From: a virus
Taxonomy: Duplodnaviria > Heunggongvirae > Uroviricota > Caudoviricetes
DNA: 33,187 bases
IMG/VR virus record: IMGVR_UViG_2529293223_000010
Direction: 5' to 3' (one strand)
The notes under the pieces are model-generated. The model worked only from the letters and a program-made list of their open reading frames with translations. It made no database searches and was not told the origin of the DNA. The position numbers and the translations under genes are program-made. Below, piece by piece: positions 14,886 to 28,628 of this stretch (positions within the stretch are counted from its first letter, which is position 1; each line of letters opens with the position of its first letter).

Positions 14886-15188
14886 ATGAGCAGAAAAACC
14901 CAACGTTACTCTAAAGAGTTCAAAGCCGAAGCTGTCAGAACGGTTCTTGAAAATCAACTTTCGATCAGTGAAGGCGCTTCCCGATTATCCCTTCCTGAAG
15001 GCACTTTAGGACAATGGGTTACCGCCGCCAGAAAAGGGCTCGGTACTCCTGGTTCCCGCACGGTGGCTGAACTGGAATCTGAAATTCTGCAACTGCGTAA
15101 GGCGTTAAATGAAGCTCGCCTTGAGCGAGATATATTAAAAAAAGCAACAGCGTATTTTGCACAGGAGTCGCTGAAAAATACGCGTTAA
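14886..15188 (+). CDS. IS600 OrfA
   Basis: 100-aa ORF identical to other copies; slippery A AAA AAG at 15138..15144. Confidence 0.9.
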
Positions 15189-15223
15189 TCGAACAATGGC
15201 GACAACAATTTCCCATTGAAGCG

Positions 15224-16042
15224 ATGTGTCAGGTATTTGGTGTATCCAGGAGCGGTTATTACAACTGGGTACAGCATGAACCCTCAGACAGAAAACAAAG
15301 TGATGAGCGGCTAAAACTGGAGATTAAGGTGGCACATATCCGCACTCGCGAAACATATGGAACCCGGCGGCTCCAGACGGAGCTGGCAGAGAATGGCATC
15401 ATCGTTGGTCGTGACCGACTGGCACGTCTTCGTAAGGAGCTAAGGCTACGCTGTAAGCAGAAACGCAAGTTCAGAGCGACTACGAACCCGAACCACAATC
15501 TGCCAGTTGCGCCAAATCTGCTGAACCAGACGTTCGCTCCTACAGCACCAAATCAGGTCTGGGTGGCGGACCTGACGTATGTTGCCACACAGGAGGGATG
15601 GTTGTACCTCGCTGGCATCAAAGATGTTTATACGTGCGAAATTGTCGGCTACGCCATGGGAGAGCGCATGACAAAAGAGCTGACAGGTAAAGCCCTGTTT
15701 ATGGCGCTCAGGAGCCAGCGCCCACCTGCCGGGCTAATCCACCACTCTGATCGAGGTTCACAGTACTGCGCATACGATTACCGGGTCATACAGGAGCAGT
15801 TTGGTCTGAAAACATCAATGTCGCGTAAAGGTAACTGTTACGACAACGCTCCGATGGAAAGCTTCTGGGGAACGCTGAAAAATGAGAGCCTGAGCCACTA
15901 TCGTTTTAATAACCGGGATGAAGCCATCTCAGTAATACGGGAATACATTGAGATTTTCTACAATCGTCAGCGTCGTCACTCTCGTCTGGGGAATATCTCC
16001 CCGGCAGCCTTCAGGGAAAAATATCATCAGATGGCTGCTTAA
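15224..16042 (+). CDS. IS600 OrfB
   Basis: 272-aa ORF in -1 frame relative to orfA. Confidence 0.9.
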   Translation: MCQVFGVSRSGYYNWVQHEPSDRKQSDERLKLEIKVAHIRTRETYGTRRLQTELAENGIIVGRDRLARLRKELRLRCKQKRKFRATTNPNHNLPVAPNLLNQTFAPTAPNQVWVADLTYVATQEGWLYLAGIKDVYTCEIVGYAMGERMTKELTGKALFMALRSQRPPAGLIHHSDRGSQYCAYDYRVIQEQFGLKTSMSRKGNCYDNAPMESFWGTLKNESLSHYRFNNRDEAISVIREYIEIFYNRQRRHSRLGNISPAAFREKYHQMAA

Positions 16043-21194: not shown

Positions 21195-21659
21195 TTACTT
21201 TAAACACTGTTCGGTTATGTATTGCTGAGCACCTTCAAGTTGGGCCTGCATCATTACCAGTCGTTCCCGGAGGGTGAAATAATCCCGTTCAGCGGTGTCT
21301 GCCAGTCTGGGGGAGACTGCATTATCCACGCTGGAGGCGATGGTGGCTTCACGCACGGACGGACAGACTGCTTTGATGTGCAACCGACGACGACCAGCGG
21401 CAACATCATCACGTAGAGCATCATTTTCAGCTTTCGCATCAGCTAACTCCTTCAGGTATTTTGCATCGAGTGCAGCAACATCACGCTGGCGTATCTGCAT
21501 GTCAGTAATGATTGCGGTCGCCTGGTTGAGTTTTTCCTTCACATTATCGCGCTGCTCTTTGTAGGTAATGGCGTTATCACGGTAATGATTAGCAGCCAAT
21601 GACAGGCAGGCGATGATGCAGATAACCAGAGCGGAGATAATCGCGGTGACTCTGCTCAT
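21195..21659 (-). CDS. Rz i-spanin
   Basis: Close match to recalled lambda Rz ([16 protein letters not shown]...[19 protein letters not shown]...); start right after the endolysin stop. Confidence 0.85.
21254..21439 (-). CDS. Rz1 o-spanin lipoprotein, embedded in Rz in the +1 frame
   Basis: [24 protein letters not shown]... lipobox LVVVGC and proline-rich mature region. Confidence 0.8.
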
Positions 21660-22153
21660 TGCTGCCCCCACAAACAGACTTCACGCTCAATCTCACGACG
21701 GGTCATCAGCCCTTTCCATTGCTTACCGCCAGCATATGTCCAGCGACGTAGCTGGTCACATGCGCCTTTGATATCGCCCTGGTTTATTTTGCGAAGAAGC
21801 ATCGATGTTCTGAAATTGCCAGCGCCCACGTTGTAAACGAACGAGTAAAGAGCGCCGCGCGTTGTTTCCGGTATATCGACTTTGATGTACGGGTTAATTT
21901 GTCTGGCGACAGTGGCAAGGTCTTTATTCAGGAGGGCTTTGCATTCTGCTTCGGTATACGTTTTACCGAGCATGATGTCTTTTCCGGTGTGTCCGTGGCA
22001 TACAGTCCATACGCCAACGATATCTTTGTATGGTATGTAGCTGACACCTTCCAGACCATCGTTACCACCTGGGCCAGTGATGAGCACAGACGCTATGGCA
22101 ATAGCCCCACCACCAATAGCAACTGCAACAGCCTTGCGTAATGATGGCGACAT
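21656..22153 (-). CDS. SAR endolysin (phage 21 R-type lysozyme with N-terminal signal-anchor-release domain)
   Basis: N-terminal Gly/Ala-rich SAR helix [23 protein letters not shown]; catalytic E-x8-D-x5-T triad. Confidence 0.85.
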
Positions 22154-22368
22154 TATTCACCTCTCGCAGCCTTACGCTTATCTTCTCTTATTTTGAAATA
22201 CAGATTCGTCAGATAAGTCAGAAGCCCCAGAAGCAGACTTCCCAGCACACCAATCGCAGCCCACTGTGACGGACTGACCTGATCCAACCACTGCAAAAAC
22301 CAGTAGCCGGCACTGCCGGCGGAGGTGCCGTAGGCAATGCCTGTTGATATTTTTTCCATCTGATACAT
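22153..22368 (-). CDS. pinholin (phage 21 S-type) with dual start motif M1/M4
   Basis: [28 protein letters not shown]... two TMDs and basic C-terminus; stop overlaps endolysin start. Confidence 0.85.
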
Positions 22369-23046: not shown

Positions 23047-23122
<76 letters not shown>

Positions 23123-23124
23123 AT

Positions 23125-23200
<76 letters not shown>

Positions 23201-23202
23201 CG

Positions 23203-23279
23203 CTGGCCCACCACCGAGGACTCGAACCTCGCACCGTCAACTTAGAAGGTTGATGCTCTATCCGGATGAGCTAGTGGTG
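23203..23279 (-). tRNA. tRNA-Arg (anticodon UCU, reads rare AGA)
   Basis: 77 nt, acceptor CCACCAC/GUGGUGG, anticodon stem UCAAC/GUUGA, loop CUUCUAA, T-arm CGAGG-UUCGAGU-CCUCG. Confidence 0.75.
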
Positions 23280-23280
23280 G

Positions 23281-23357
23281 TTGGTGGCCCTTGCTGGACT
23301 TGAACCAGCGACCTGGCGATTATGAGTCGCTCGCTCTGACCAACTGAGCTAAAGGGC
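23281..23357 (-). tRNA. tRNA-Ile2-like (anticodon CAU, probably lysidine-modified to read AUA; elongator Met not excluded)
   Basis: 77 nt, acceptor GGCCCUU/AAGGGCC, anticodon loop CUCAUAA, T-arm GCUGG-UUCAAGU-CCAGC resembling recalled ileX. Confidence 0.7.
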
Positions 23358-23365
23358 CGGAGGCA

Positions 23366-23395
23366 GAATAATAACCATATGTCATCACATCTGCA
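23366..23395 (-). promoter_or_regulatory. sigma70-like promoter for the tRNA cluster (TTGCAG-N17-TATTAT)
   Basis: Minus-strand -35 at 23390..23395 and -10 at 23367..23372, about 9 nt upstream of the tRNA-Ile 5' end. Confidence 0.45.
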
Positions 23396-23446
23396 AACTC
23401 ATCTGACCACCAGCACGTTTAACGTCCTGTGCCGTTTTTCAGGTAT

Positions 23447-23468
23447 AAAAAAACCCGCATAAAGCGGG
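23447..23468 (-). terminator. rho-independent terminator downstream of antirepressor-like gene 1
   Basis: Minus strand GCCCGC-TTTAT-GCGGG followed by T7. Confidence 0.55.
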
Positions 23469-23565
23469 CTCTTTCAAATGTCCATGTCTGCTATTCGCCT
23501 CGCAGTACAACTTTGCGAAGCGTACCGGAATTGAAGCAGTTTATGGCTAAAATTGCAAGAACTTT

Positions 23566-24123
23566 TTAAAGCTGCATCAGCCTTTCCACCAGTTTATCTC
23601 TGCGAACAACAAACCAACCATTGGCTCTCGCCAGTTCCAGCCATGACTCAAGGGAAATAACAATATCATCATCCCGCAACTGAATTGTGGAAACAGTGAC
23701 ACCGCCTTGCTGATAACAGAGAACTCGCGTGTCGTAACTTTTCTGGCATGAAACTGGCGTTGACGGCTCCTTTTGACTGAAATAGCAGTCTTCCAGTTTT
23801 TCGAACACATCCCACGCCTGATCGGTTTCGAGCATTTTTGCGTGGCGGGCTGCGCCGCGTTCTGTCCAGAGAATGAGGGAACGGGTTTTGGGAGAGATGG
23901 GATTTTGTGAGTAGTTTAAAGCTACCCGCAATTCTTTAAGGTCATTACCAACAACTTTGAAAAAGTGTTTCCCTTCAACGAAGCGTACTTTGTTCTCATA
24001 ATGATTCTGGCGAATACGCACCGGCTCAGTGCCGTAAAGCTGCGCCAAAAGTTCGGTGGTAATAACAGGAATCTGGTTATAGGTAACAGGGGAAAGGTTT
24101 TTGACAGAAATCTGAACAGTCAT
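23566..24123 (-). CDS. phage antirepressor-like protein (AntA/ORF6N-type N-terminal domain), paralogue 1
   Basis: 185-aa ORF; N-terminal two thirds about 80 percent identical to the 28080..28628 paralogue; conserved LILWTERGAARHAKMLETDQAW; family from memory. Confidence 0.55.
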   Translation of the reverse strand: MTVQISVKNLSPVTYNQIPVITTELLAQLYGTEPVRIRQNHYENKVRFVEGKHFFKVVGNDLKELRVALNYSQNPISPKTRSLILWTERGAARHAKMLETDQAWDVFEKLEDCYFSQKEPSTPVSCQKSYDTRVLCYQQGGVTVSTIQLRDDDIVISLESWLELARANGWFVVRRDKLVERLMQL

Positions 24124-24283
24124 AACGACCTCGCGTTTCGATGGTTTTTAACTCACCACCTGCGACGCCAATCGCTGGGTGGTGAACTGTGCAGGGTTGG
24201 CGTAACCGGTCGAAACATCCGGCGAGTCTCTCAACTCCCCCACACAGCCCACCATAAATCGCGAATGTGACTGTGCTTAGCGC

Positions 24284-24306
24284 ATAAAAAAACCGCCAGC
24301 GCGGTT
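24284..24306 (-). terminator. rho-independent terminator ending a short leader transcript (tR'-like), copy 1
   Basis: Minus strand ACCGC-GCTG-GCGGT followed by T7; about 60 nt downstream of the predicted promoter. Confidence 0.5.
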
Positions 24307-24366
24307 ATGCACCGTTTCGATATCCGGGACGCCAATCCCGACGCCAGATTTTGCTGGCGCGTGAGG

Positions 24367-24396
24367 AATATAGCCCCGGATAACAGATTGAGTCAA
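24367..24396 (-). promoter_or_regulatory. sigma70-like promoter TTGACT-N18-TATATT, copy 1 (pR'-like, directly downstream of the Q-position gene)
   Basis: -35 at 24391..24396, -10 at 24367..24372 on the minus strand; lies in a block identical to 28831..28890. Confidence 0.5.
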
Positions 24397-24947
24397 CAGA
24401 CAGTTTTTAAATCCCCGGAAGAGAATGCATCACGCATCGGCAGATAGAGCATAAACTCTGCCATTTTCAACCACGCATCTATGCGATTACGGCACGTGGC
24501 GTAACACCACTCAGGGTGTGAATCATTCAGCAATTCAGCCATTTTTCGCTTAGTCATCCCCCTCCCTTCATATCGTTGCCGGAGGATACAAATCAATCCT
24601 GGGTGTTCTGCCAGCACTTCACTAATCACCCGATCAATGCATAACGCCTCTGCATCAGTACAATGCACCAGCCAGCTTTTTTGCTTGCCGTTGATCATAT
24701 CCCGCAAAAAAGCCTCAAGTTCAGGTTTGTCCAGACCTGCTTTTTTCATCCTCCGGAGCGCCTCGTTAATTGCCGTTTTTGTCAGCTTTTTAGAGGCCAA
24801 CAACTGGTTGAACATATTCCCCGTCTTACCGCCGCCAATATACGACCAGCGCCCCCACATGCGCAGTTTTCCCTGAATCCAGACACTTTCCAGCGTGGTG
24901 AGACGAAGGTGTTCCCCGCTTTTGCCTGTATTTGTTGGGTAAATCAT
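24393..24947 (-). CDS. hypothetical phage late-region protein at the position of antiterminator Q (function unverified); start taken at internal Met MIYPTNTG
   Basis: ORF 24393..25067; start at 24947 gives a 4-nt overlap with the upstream gene; sits immediately upstream of a promoter-terminator module. Confidence 0.3.
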   Translation of the reverse strand: MIYPTNTGKSGEHLRLTTLESVWIQGKLRMWGRWSYIGGGKTGNMFNQLLASKKLTKTAINEALRRMKKAGLDKPELEAFLRDMINGKQKSWLVHCTDAEALCIDRVISEVLAEHPGLICILRQRYEGRGMTKRKMAELLNDSHPEWCYATCRNRIDAWLKMAEFMLYLPMRDAFSSGDLKTVC

Positions 24948-25463: not shown

Positions 25464-25766
25464 ATGAGCAGAAAAACCCAACGTTACTCTAAAGAGTTCA
25501 AAGCCGAAGCTGTCAGAACGGTTCTTGAAAATCAACTTTCGATCAGTGAAGGCGCTTCCCGATTATCCCTTCCTGAAGGCACTTTAGGACAATGGGTTAC
25601 CGCCGCCAGAAAAGGGCTCGGTACTCCTGGTTCCCGCACGGTGGCTGAACTGGAATCTGAAATTCTGCAACTGCGTAAGGCGTTAAATGAAGCTCGCCTT
25701 GAGCGAGATATATTAAAAAAAGCAACAGCGTATTTTGCACAGGAGTCGCTGAAAAATACGCGTTAA
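25464..25766 (+). CDS. IS600 OrfA
   Basis: 100-aa ORF identical to other copies. Confidence 0.9.
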   Translation: MSRKTQRYSKEFKAEAVRTVLENQLSISEGASRLSLPEGTLGQWVTAARKGLGTPGSRTVAELESEILQLRKALNEARLERDILKKATAYFAQESLKNTR

Positions 25767-25801
25767 TCGAACAATGGCGACAACAATTTCCCATTGAAGC
25801 G

Positions 25802-26620
25802 ATGTGTCAGGTATTTGGTGTATCCAGGAGCGGTTATTACAACTGGGTACAGCATGAACCCTCAGACAGAAAACAAAGTGATGAGCGGCTAAAACTGGAG
25901 ATTAAGGTGGCACATATCCGCACTCGCGAAACATATGGAACCCGGCGGCTCCAGACGGAGCTGGCAGAGAATGGCATCATCGTTGGTCGTGACCGACTGG
26001 CACGTCTTCGTAAGGAGCTAAGGCTACGCTGTAAGCAGAAACGCAAGTTCAGAGCGACTACGAACCCGAACCACAATCTGCCAGTTGCGCCAAATCTGCT
26101 GAACCAGACGTTCGCTCCTACAGCACCAAATCAGGTCTGGGTGGCGGACCTGACGTATGTTGCCACACAGGAGGGATGGTTGTACCTCGCTGGCATCAAA
26201 GATGTTTATACGTGCGAAATTGTCGGCTACGCCATGGGAGAGCGCATGACAAAAGAGCTGACAGGTAAAGCCCTGTTTATGGCGCTCAGGAGCCAGCGCC
26301 CACCTGCCGGGCTAATCCACCACTCTGATCGAGGTTCACAGTACTGCGCATACGATTACCGGGTCATACAGGAGCAGTTTGGTCTGAAAACATCAATGTC
26401 GCGTAAAGGTAACTGTTACGACAACGCTCCGATGGAAAGCTTCTGGGGAACGCTGAAAAATGAGAGCCTGAGCCACTATCGTTTTAATAACCGGGATGAA
26501 GCCATCTCAGTAATACGGGAATACATTGAGATTTTCTACAATCGTCAGCGTCGTCACTCTCGTCTGGGGAATATCTCCCCGGCAGCCTTCAGGGAAAAAT
26601 ATCATCAGATGGCTGCTTAA
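25802..26620 (+). CDS. IS600 OrfB
   Basis: 272-aa ORF identical to copy 2. Confidence 0.9.
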   Translation: MCQVFGVSRSGYYNWVQHEPSDRKQSDERLKLEIKVAHIRTRETYGTRRLQTELAENGIIVGRDRLARLRKELRLRCKQKRKFRATTNPNHNLPVAPNLLNQTFAPTAPNQVWVADLTYVATQEGWLYLAGIKDVYTCEIVGYAMGERMTKELTGKALFMALRSQRPPAGLIHHSDRGSQYCAYDYRVIQEQFGLKTSMSRKGNCYDNAPMESFWGTLKNESLSHYRFNNRDEAISVIREYIEIFYNRQRRHSRLGNISPAAFREKYHQMAA

Positions 26621-27654: not shown

Positions 27655-27810
27655 TTACTTCCTGGATTCGTAGTCTACGAAGACAGCGACCTCCGTCTGG
27701 CCGGTTCGGATTCGTACCTCACAGAGGTCTTTCCTCGTTACCAGTGCCGTCACTATGACGGTTAAACAGATGACGATCAGGGCGACTAACATCGCCTTTT
27801 GCTGCTTCAT
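27655..27810 (-). CDS. hok: Hok/Gef-family type I membrane toxin (HokD/RelF-like), start taken at MKQQKAML
   Basis: MKQQKAMLVALIVICLTVIVTALVTRKDLCEVRIRTGQTEVAVF matches the recalled Hok family signature; ORF track shows an in-frame upstream extension to 27867. Confidence 0.8.
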   Translation of the reverse strand: MKQQKAMLVALIVICLTVIVTALVTRKDLCEVRIRTGQTEVAVFVDYESRK

Positions 27811-28079
27811 AGCCTGCTTCTCCTTGCCTTCCGGCACGTAAGAGGCTAACCTACATGTGTCTAGCATGAAATTGGCCTCAGATTAATGTTAAGCGTCTTG
27901 CAGGACGCGTAATGTTAACTGGGGCTTCTCATCTGCCTTTTGGTGTTCATGCCTGAGACAGATAGCCTCAAGCACCCGCAGCAATTCTACTTAACTTCCC
28001 TTTCACCGCAAATCATTTTATCCCCGGTGGTAATGTTCTCCCGATATGGGAATTCCCATATCGGGGCTAATTTAACCAG

Positions 28080-28628
28080 TTAAAGCTCCATTAATTTTCC
28101 GGCAAGTTCATCTCGCGGCATTACCAGCCATCCGCGCGATTTAAGCAACATCAGGGCTTCTTCAACCGTCACCAGCTGACCAGGCGCATAACTTCGGATG
28201 AAGGCAGTTTTATCATCACGGATCGCCAGGTGAATATCGATGTTCATTTTCCCCGTAGCCCGATCTTTCTCGTACTGGTTGAAGTAGCAGTCTTCCAATT
28301 TTTCGAATACTTCCCACGCCTGATCGGTTTCGAGCATTTTGGCGTGACGTGCTGCTCCGCGTTCTGTCCAGAGAATGAGGGAGCGAACGTTACGGGCAAT
28401 TTTCACAGACTCGCTTAAAGATAGTCTGTGCTTCATACCTCTAAGCTCATCGCCCACTAACTTATAAAAATGCTTACCTTCAATAAAACGTTCAGCGTTT
28501 CTGGCGTGATTTTGCTGAATGCGAATCGCTTCTGTGCCGTACAACTGCGCCAAAAGTTCAGTGGTAATAACAGGTATCTGGTTATGGGCGATCGGGGAGA
28601 GAGTTTCAACAGAGATTTGAGTGGTCAT
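28080..28628 (-). CDS. phage antirepressor-like protein (AntA/ORF6N-type), paralogue 2; start taken at MTTQISVETL
   Basis: ORF track start at 28760 translates the conserved 5' leader; internal Met aligns with the start of paralogue 1. Confidence 0.55.
   Translation of the reverse strand: MTTQISVETLSPIAHNQIPVITTELLAQLYGTEAIRIQQNHARNAERFIEGKHFYKLVGDELRGMKHRLSLSESVKIARNVRSLILWTERGAARHAKMLETDQAWEVFEKLEDCYFNQYEKDRATGKMNIDIHLAIRDDKTAFIRSYAPGQLVTVEEALMLLKSRGWLVMPRDELAGKLMEL

Follow-up and report, generated by a model that had tools for sequence, protein, structure and literature searches.

A probable IsrK-C4-antirepressor cassette between a Q-like gene and its linked promoter-terminator candidate in a lambdoid prophage

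Introduction

A promoter and an intrinsic terminator placed directly behind a Q-like gene raise the question whether the unit serves the Q protein, in the manner of the lambda pR'-6S-tR' arrangement, or belongs to a different element. We addressed this question for positions 24,124 to 24,396 of a viral sequence (Caudoviricetes; IMG/VR record IMGVR_UViG_2529293223_000010), whose whole stretch of 33,187 nucleotides is called the window below. An initial annotation of this region had described a minus-strand promoter, a short terminated RNA and a leader running into an antirepressor-like gene, and had taken them for a pR'/tR'-like module. Our analysis indicates that the region is very probably the head of a self-contained IsrK-C4-antirepressor cassette, a lambdoid-prophage form of the P1/P7 immI-type unit, inserted between the Q-like gene and a separate Q-linked unit. 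The IsrK-C4-antirepressor cassette as such is already known.

Coordinates are window positions unless another sequence is named. The cassettes, the Q-like gene, the Q-linked element and the tRNA, lysis and hok/sok genes all lie on the minus strand, and other loci used for comparison are designated by L and a number.

Results

Identification of the IsrK-C4-antirepressor cassette

Three Rfam families were detected behind the Q-like gene, all above their gathering thresholds and in the expected order, and the cassette is identified on this ground. The c4-a1b1 family (RF03163) matched 24373..24321 with 52.9 bits (gathering score 46.7), the isrK covariance model (RF01394) matched 24360..24286 over model positions 1-77 with 77.8 bits (gathering score 50, E = 3e-15), and the C4 covariance model (RF01695) matched 24259..24175 with 68.7 bits (gathering score 45).

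The promoter of the unit (24367..24396) consists of the -35 hexamer TTGACT (24396..24391), an 18-nt spacer and the -10 hexamer TATATT (24372..24367), with 10 of 12 consensus matches; the initial annotation had given the same hexamers and spacing. The IsrK small RNA of ~75 nt (24286..24360) is predicted to fold into hairpin 1 (24360..24341) and hairpin 2 (24340..24325), the loop of the latter being UUGGCGU (site I, 24335..24329). These are followed by UCGAAAC (24320..24314), an exact motif match to site II of the antirepressor mRNA described below, and by a terminator with the stem at 24306..24291 and a seven-T run ending at 24286. The short RNA with two hairpins and a T7-tailed terminator proposed initially agrees with both the Rfam match and the fold, and the distance of about 60 nt given for the terminator was close, the stem beginning ~55 nt after the start site.

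Consensus matches do not distinguish the unit. A 2.8-kb scan returned four promoter-like sites against 3.2 expected and four terminator-like sites against 3.3 expected, both at chance level, and the IsrK fold is only slightly better than that of shuffled sequence (z = -1.9). We regard the promoter-IsrK-terminator unit as real because of homology and conservation. In a survey of 128 cassette instances, 102 of them distinct and mostly from viral contigs, a promoter with at least 9 of 12 matches stands at the same position in 87 of the 102 distinct homologous cassettes, a run of five or more T is present in 99 of them (median position +71), and hairpin 1 is formed by 32 different arm pairs with 97% of positions paired.

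The loop of hairpin 1, (G)CAAAAU(C), was a fixed part of the cassette search pattern, and the set cannot show its invariance; it agrees with the Rfam consensus of both c4-a1b1 and isrK. The C4 5' flank (GAUUUAUG) was considered as a pairing partner of the loop CAAAAUC and rejected, the match being partial and not conserved. Separately, the promoter-proximal half of the spacer (24381..24373, ..ATCCGGGGC before TATATT) was found to be almost invariant across cassettes in unrelated contexts, and this half could serve as an operator or as a binding site for some other protein.

The C4 RNA, the leader and the antirepressor gene

A conserved leader runs into the antirepressor-like gene, as had been noted; it spans 160 nt (24283..24124) and contains a C4-type antisense RNA (24175..24259), the counterpart of Salmonella STnc1160, with a fold energy of -41.5 kcal/mol (z = -4.1). 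Its predicted fold presents the loop 2 sequence GUUUCGA (24216..24210) and the single-stranded segment ACGCCAA (24203..24197), and in the minimum-energy fold of the 256-nt leader the IsrK sequence UUGGCGU pairs with this ACGCCAA. Downstream of C4 lies its proposed target region on the antirepressor mRNA (24129..24171), which is suggested by covariation with C4 and includes site I' UUGGCGU (24171..24165) and site II UCGAAAC (24141..24135), both exact matches, and the Shine-Dalgarno sequence GAGG (24132..24129). The antirepressor-type gene itself (23566..24123) is an intact open reading frame (ORF) of 185 aa with an N-terminal ORF6N domain (Pfam, 7.5e-20) and a full-length match to PHROG 2379 'anti-repressor' (2.3e-91).

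A small ORF of 35 codons (24148..24255) overlaps C4 and occupies the position of orf45 of the Salmonella prophage Gifsy-1, its AUG lying at about +106, compared with +107 in Gifsy-1. The coding capacity of this ORF is not conserved (3 to 74 codons across cassettes, and absent in many), which argues that conservation acts at the RNA level.

The promoter-IsrK-terminator unit and the upstream genes

The gene upstream encodes a Q-like protein of 184 aa (24393..24947) with a DUF1133 domain (Pfam, 3.9e-108), a match to PHROG 753 'anti-termination protein Q-like' and 26.6 bits against PF06530, for which the curated cutoff is 26; the sole significant solved relative of the DUF1133 Q profile (21 family members) is Q21 (E = 1.3e-5). 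The stop codon TGA of this gene (24395..24393) falls within the -35 hexamer of the IsrK promoter. The initial placement of the unit immediately behind the gene in the Q position is therefore accurate for this cassette, copy 1, and it is not so for a second cassette in the window, copy 2 (28080..28904).

The head of copy 2 (28634..28904) comprises the promoter TTGACG-18-TATATT, IsrK (28868..28792) and C4 (28764..28680), and is followed by its own antirepressor gene (28634..28080). The same three Rfam families were detected there at 28881..28680 (isrK, 75.1 bits), with neither a Q gene nor any co-directional gene upstream. In copy 2 the small ORF continues in frame into the antirepressor gene, and the C4 stems of the two copies differ by compensatory changes. 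Loci L008 and L061 likewise carry two cassettes each.

If 24396..24367 were the late promoter of the adjacent Q, IsrK would be a 6S-like RNA, and the antirepressor gene and the genes downstream would be expressed by Q-dependent read-through. The location of copy 1 and its overlap with the Q stop codon speak for this arrangement, as does the fact that Q genes precede 23 of the 128 surveyed cassettes. These Q genes come from four Pfam families, namely the Q82 family (PF06323; 9 instances), DUF1133 (8), PF06530 (5) and the Q-lambda family (PF03589; 1). NinE (6 instances) or NinB (5) is the upstream neighbour in 11 further cassettes, and for 59 no ORF of the same direction ends in the 70 nt upstream. 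In all of these contexts the IsrK promoter is nearly identical (TTGACn, 18 nt ending ..atccggggc, TATATT), and it did not travel with any one Q family. The DNA sites at which Q proteins load differ from family to family (10.1101/651190; PMC6606751). It is therefore improbable that a promoter common to four Q families and to non-Q contexts serves any of these families as its cognate site.

The -10-like hexamer CAAAAT at +8..+13 of IsrK could also be taken in favour of Q control, since such hexamers can induce sigma-dependent pausing (PMC6606751); it is, however, the loop of hairpin 1 (24352..24347) in every context surveyed, the loop being fixed in the search pattern, and so may have no particular link to Q. 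AntQ was not assayed on the IsrK terminator in the Gifsy-1 paper of 2016 (PMC4825925).

The positions of related cassettes lead in the same direction. In the Shiga toxin (Stx) phages VT2-Sakai and YYZ-2008 the nin region holds the cassette, with a Q gene ~2.3 kb downstream of it; in VT2-Sakai the cassette follows ninE, a separate terminator lies behind that Q, and the region after Q has no similarity to either window unit. The late genes of the window are not next after the IsrK terminator: C4 and the antirepressor gene come first, then a second promoter-like box that has its own terminator, and after these the tRNA and lysis genes. The cassette is common. Of 5,426 complete E. coli genomes, about 800 gave a near-identity match to it, and in a search for more distant relatives 264 phage records matched, mostly of Stx phages.

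We assign the promoter-IsrK-terminator unit to the cassette and not to Q because, by these comparisons, the same promoter occurs behind four Q families, behind ninE or ninB, and in copy 2 without a co-directional ORF. The upstream stop codon overlaps or abuts the TTGAC of the -35 in the ninE and Q82-family contexts as well, and the insertion junction of the cassette seems to lie at the -35 hexamer or a few bases before it. As a side observation, the last eight residues of the window's Q-like protein (SGDLKTVC; 24393..24420) are outside the DUF1133 profile, and their DNA adjoins the cassette -35.

An element linked to DUF1133 Q genes

A different element travels with the DUF1133 Q genes. Among 27 genome loci with relatives of the window Q, isrK is directly behind Q in only three; the other loci carry at the Q stop codon a box of the form TTGca-17-TTnAAT-5-TAnGCT, with a strong terminator 60-110 nt later. 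The box was aligned in register over 22 loci, and its TAnGCT hexamer is invariant at T1, A2, G4, C5 and T6. A box profile built without the window sequence matched the window once, at 23561..23503 (E = 9e-14; 1.5e-12 in a second search), and gave no match to either window IsrK promoter.

The match opens an element (23447..23561) that stands after the antirepressor stop codon and consists of TTGCAA (23558..23553), a 17-nt spacer, TTCAAT (23535..23530), a 5-nt gap, TACGCT (23524..23519) and a terminator (23471..23447), with a fold z of -3.5 for the element. Beyond this terminator are four tRNA genes (Met-CAT, Arg-TCT, Thr-TGT and Gly-TCC; 23048..23358), preceded by a promoter-like TTTGCA-18-TATTAT (23368..23397), and then the lysis genes for holin (22368..22153) and lysozyme (22153..21656).

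We also recorded the box position in all 32 loci with a DUF1133 Q; the profile matched 27 of them, always downstream of Q. The box abuts the Q stop codon in 21 of the 32, which come from many enterobacterial genera and include L092, whose cassette is in the nin region. In six loci that have the cassette behind Q and reach far enough (the window, L003, L008, L060, L061 and L149), the box stands after the antirepressor gene, and in one locus (L014) it follows a hok/sok insert, so that the junction between Q and the box accepts other inserts. No box was found in the remaining four, of which L004 and L005 have an insertion sequence (IS) after the antirepressor gene, L010 reaches the contig end and L121 gave no match.

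The linkage to Q, the terminator of its own and the position ahead of the tRNA and lysis genes make 23447..23561 the candidate pR'/tR', that is, a putative late promoter and terminator of the window. The box is only promoter-like, with 8 of 12 consensus matches, and was missed by a simple promoter scan. TAnGCT was considered as an extended -10 and rejected, the TG motif being present in some loci only and no -35 lying at the right distance; we prefer, without regarding it as settled, to read the box as TTGCAA-17-TTNAAT with TAnGCT downstream, as its alignment suggests.

In one subgroup of these loci (L015, L016, L018 and L023-L026), GTGAGC(A/C) is fixed between the -35-like and -10-like hexamers (locus positions about 3553..3562). 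TGAGCA is a published Q21 binding subsite, also located between -35 and -10 (PMC6606751). The window's own Q-linked box has no TGAGCA-type motif.

IsrJ and the Q82-family loci

AntQ of Gifsy-1 belongs to the Q82 family (PF06323), and the corresponding arrangement was found there. In Gifsy-1 (L151, NC_010392; 33406..33512, minus strand) the promoter of the IsrJ unit, TTGCAA-17-TATATT, begins at the anrP stop codon. We surveyed 67 distinct Q82-family loci (L152-L231) for the position of the IsrJ promoter, RNA and terminator relative to Q. The IsrJ unit is 11-37 nt after Q in 41 of the 67; in 20 with a cassette behind Q it is ~830 nt downstream, and in one more ~1040 nt downstream. Three cassette loci of the 67 had no IsrJ match, at least one of them in a sequence stretch that is too short, and two had an IsrJ match at ~800 nt though the search pattern found no cassette; these two are taken to be cassette variants.

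The cassette thus appears, by locus comparison, as an insertion between Q and the Q-linked unit in two Q families. IsrJ, not IsrK, looks like the 6S-like late-promoter transcript of Gifsy-1. A later paper calls IsrK the product of an 'antitermination-regulated promoter', as an assertion (PMC7547250); our comparison suggests that this description merits re-examination, as IsrJ fits the role better. The element of the DUF1133 loci is IsrJ-like by position only and not by sequence, because the Rfam isrJ model gave no match to the window element or to the matching place in the Salmonella locus L008 even at permissive thresholds, apart from weak, terminator-driven matches.

A two-contact pairing code in the cassettes

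Specificity pairings were sought across the 102 distinct cassettes by exact-match counts, and two contacts were detected. For contact I, a UUGGNNN sequence forms the loop of IsrK hairpin 2; in 96 of the 102 cassettes the single-stranded part of C4 contains its exact complement, NNNCCAA, and the same UUGGNNN recurs just behind C4, in six triplet classes. A few cassettes look recombinant, and in these C4 and the downstream contact I site still match each other. At contact II, C4 loop 2 has 42 different sequences. The longest stretch of exact complementarity between loop 2 and the linker behind hairpin 2 of its own IsrK has a mean length of 6.9 nt (mismatched pairs, 2.1 nt); with the Shine-Dalgarno region of its own cassette the mean is 7.7 nt (mismatched pairs, 4.1 nt).

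The two copies in the window illustrate the covariation. They share contact I (UUGGCGU), and all three contact II sites have changed together, reading GUUUCGA, UCGAAAC and UCGAAAC (C4, IsrK and mRNA) in copy 1 and UCCGUA, UACGGA and UACGGA(G) in copy 2. C4 is complementary to sites on both of its sides, the downstream one being at the ribosome-binding site of the antirepressor gene, and the order and polarity of the sites are compatible with antiparallel pairing of C4 to either target. The covariation points to C4 as a repressor of antirepressor translation and to IsrK as a mimic of the C4 target.

Discussion

Proposed mechanism of the cassette

The data can be assembled into a scheme in which the cassette's sigma-70-type promoter (24396..24367) would fire without Q, and most transcripts would stop at the weak intrinsic terminator, giving ~75-nt IsrK. 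Minority read-through would produce a long RNA carrying C4 and the antirepressor mRNA and ending at the terminator 23471..23447. The distance from 24360 to this next terminator (about 23450) is 911 nt, in agreement with the published ~910-nt long transcript of Gifsy-1, where anrP is transcribed from the active isrK promoter by those transcripts, a subset, that pass the terminator (PMC4825925). The initial proposal that the antirepressor gene is reached only by read-through of the terminator fits this anatomy and the behaviour of the homologue.

C4, within the long RNA or as a processed species, would then pair through GUUUCGA and ACGCCAA with UCGAAAC and UUGGCGU upstream of the start codon, leaving the antirepressor untranslated. 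IsrK copies both sites; in the long RNA it would pair with C4, which corresponds to the published inactive 'structure A', and free IsrK in excess would bind the C4 region, by titration or remodelling, and so turn antirepressor translation on. The antirepressor would finally inactivate the prophage repressor.

The first two of these steps and activation by IsrK in trans have been demonstrated experimentally for the Gifsy-1 homologue only, and are proposed for the window by analogy; IsrK expression, Hfq binding and trans activation of antirepressor translation are likewise known for Gifsy-1 only (PMC4825925). C4 pairing with the mRNA and the target-mimic role of IsrK are suggested by covariation, and the action on the prophage repressor is expected from the family annotation and from Gifsy-1, where AnrP raises antQ expression and induces the prophage (PMC4825925).

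Several published results agree with C4 as repressor and IsrK as mimic. The long RNA of Gifsy-1 is translationally silent, the middle of IsrK pairing with the orf45 region, and IsrK supplied in trans raises anrP translation 139-fold (PMC4825925). The G28A and G31A changes in IsrK abolish this activation, and C159U and C162U in the C4 segment raise basal expression (PMC4825925), as expected of derepression.

Other observations weigh against this reading. Duplex energies of the C4 segment with IsrK or with the antirepressor leader were only modestly better for cognate pairs than for shuffles (z -1.3 to -3.4) and did not cleanly separate copies 1 and 2; as they are weakly discriminating, we relied on covariation instead. 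The start site, the termination efficiency and C4 processing at the window locus are carried over from homologues. The Gifsy-1 authors attribute regulation to the long RNA adopting alternative folds and to translational coupling through orf45, and the anrP ribosome-binding site showed no structural change (PMC4825925). In the same work, G28A and G31A in cis IsrK raise basal expression, so that a simple decoy model needs an extra assumption, for instance that cis pairing is required for C4 folding or processing, and constitutive STnc1160 strengthened, not weakened, the IsrK-mediated growth arrest (PMC4825925). Finally, IS elements interrupt the prophage, so that a functional repressor for the cassette to act on may be missing.

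Alternative explanations

The alternative that survives best, although we consider it unlikely, follows the Gifsy-1 authors and makes the C4-like stretch only a structured leader with orf45, lacking any trans-acting C4 repressor; two alternative folds and translational coupling would control expression, and free IsrK would open the ribosome-binding site of the small ORF. Native gels, mutations, 30S binding and fusion data from Gifsy-1 support this model (PMC4825925), and in the window an AUG stands at the corresponding place (+106) and the same long-range helix is predicted. The small ORF is, however, poorly kept in length and often missing across cassettes, and the model leaves both the covariation of loop 2 with the Shine-Dalgarno region and the UUGGNNN repeat after C4 unexplained. 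The stretch also matches the C4 antisense RNA model, and a stable ~80-nt processed species of the C4 region has been reported in Salmonella.

Less probable again, and in our judgment improbable, is a decayed remnant, in which a genuine family member is now inactive within an IS-riddled prophage. Four ORF pairs of the same size (100 aa + 272 aa) are present in the window, at 5191..6347 (minus), 14886..16042 (plus), 25464..26620 (plus) and 30811..31967 (minus). The pair at 25464..26620, the only one scanned, matches HTH_Tnp_1 and rve (IS3 family), and it truncates a DUF1367 gene upstream of the Q operon, on which ground the prophage is probably defective; the related loci L004 and L005, with their IS directly after the antirepressor gene, add to this view. 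Against decay of the cassette itself, the promoter, IsrK, C4, both target sites and the full-length antirepressor ORF are intact in both copies, and the differences between the copies are compensatory, not random.

A late promoter of the adjacent Q at 24396..24367 is the least credible of the alternatives and very improbable, the same promoter being shared with other Q families and non-Q genes, copy 2 having no Q, and the conserved elements adjacent to DUF1133 and Q82-family Q genes being others.

Two further features of the surroundings were recorded. A hok/sok pair (Hok/gef ORF; Rfam sok/CssrC, 96.3 bits) is located just downstream of the copy 2 antirepressor gene (27655..27977). The chromosomal small RNA genes SraC/RyeA and SdsR/RyeB, which overlap on opposite strands, and the Shigella small RNA CssrB flank the prophage material (32581..32725 and 1365..1547), which would fit a chromosome of Shigella or E. 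coli.

Implications

Putting the pairing data and the locus comparison together, IsrK could be an 'anti-antisense' decoy for a C4 RNA that masks the antirepressor ribosome-binding site, and the 'dual sRNA/mRNA' (small RNA and mRNA) of Gifsy-1 and the c4 of P1 could be one mechanism with a two-contact code (at least six and 42 variants). The cassettes of the window, which have contact I in common and differ at contact II, could then partly cross-talk between prophages. With the cassette repeatedly placed between Q and the Q-linked unit, in two or more Q families, the 6S-like RNA of Gifsy-1 would be IsrJ and not IsrK. We offer this joint reading tentatively, as one somewhat more apt to fail in some part than to hold throughout.

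What the present analysis may add to the known cassette is its location between Q and the Q-linked unit in two Q families, the suggestion that IsrJ, not IsrK, is the 6S-like RNA of Gifsy-1, and the two-contact covariation that joins the descriptions of IsrK and C4. For annotation, a promoter and a terminator right after Q are not necessarily a Q-utilisation site; calling the copy 1 promoter pR' would class the antirepressor gene as late-controlled and overlook the better candidate, which lies 800 nt further downstream. The cassette would provide a Q-independent route to the antirepressor and possibly to induction, and the covariation is a testable code for which cassettes interact in strains with several prophages.

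Comparison with known systems

The identity with lambda pR'-6S-tR' proposed by the initial annotation is not supported, the promoter being shared by four Q families and non-Q contexts, a different element travelling with the DUF1133 Q, and the late genes not being next. The unit shares with lambda pR'-6S-tR' and with StxS (Sy et al. 2020, PMC7547250) a constitutive-looking promoter after Q, a short terminated RNA and genes beyond it that need read-through. It differs in that its promoter is tied to no one Q family, late genes are not directly behind it, a separate Q-linked unit is found 800 nt downstream, and the homologue is controlled by RNA pairing and translation. On sequence grounds the window unit appears to resemble lambda pR'-6S-tR' in shape only.

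The CI RNA of P4, compared by description, is a processed RNA that pairs with the sites seqA and seqC upstream and downstream in its own transcript, and the Gifsy-1 authors name P4 seqA as a structural homologue of IsrK (PMC4825925). The P4 system acts by premature transcription termination on replication genes, whereas the downstream site of the window overlaps the ribosome-binding site of the antirepressor gene.

The likeness to the immI operon of P1 and P7 concerns the control principle. In both, a C4-type RNA comes from the same transcript as the antirepressor mRNA that it controls, target-like sites stand on both sides of C4 with the downstream one at the ribosome-binding site, and the pairing sequences vary between elements as a specificity code. 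P1 C4 is released from a precursor by RNase P processing, and the a1/b1 and a2/b2 target sites of P1/P7 c4 were reportedly described by Citron and Schuster in 1990. The window differs from immI by the terminator between the upstream sites and C4, which splits off IsrK, and by an antirepressor of the ORF6N type instead of P1 Ant; it has no icd homologue, and accordingly no blocked icd-like ORF with P1-type ant1/ant2. No C1 operator was identified in the window, and the cassette resides in a lambdoid prophage instead of a plasmid prophage. Full repression of P1 ant depends on the C4 antisense RNA (PMC8198154). The window unit works like immI and is not the P1 immI operon.

Gifsy-1 of strain LT2 (NC_010392) was not found by megablast with the Salmonella locus against the phage collection; it was fetched by accession and scanned with Rfam. 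Its layout on that sequence is isrK 34316..34240, C4 34214..34131, anrP 34076..33513 and isrJ 33480..33406, and its published order is antQ, the isrK promoter, IsrK (77 nt, terminated), orf45/STnc1160, anrP and isrJ (Hershko-Shalev et al. 2016, PMC4825925). There the upstream Q is of the Q82 family, whereas the window has a DUF1133 protein that is distantly Q21-like; the unit after the antirepressor gene is IsrJ in Gifsy-1 and a unit that is not IsrJ by sequence in the window; loop 2 contains CGGUGA instead of GUUUCGA, and the small ORF has 45 codons instead of 35. The two loci share the Q gene, a promoter overlapping or abutting the Q stop codon, an IsrK of ~77 nt with its terminator, the C4-like stretch, an antirepressor of the ORF6N type and a second unit of promoter, short RNA and terminator. 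The 5' half of IsrK is almost identical, the window IsrK agrees with that of Gifsy-1 at C18, G28 and G31, the bases targeted by mutation in the published work, the same long-range helix between IsrK and C4 is predicted, and the predicted read-through RNA is also ~910 nt.

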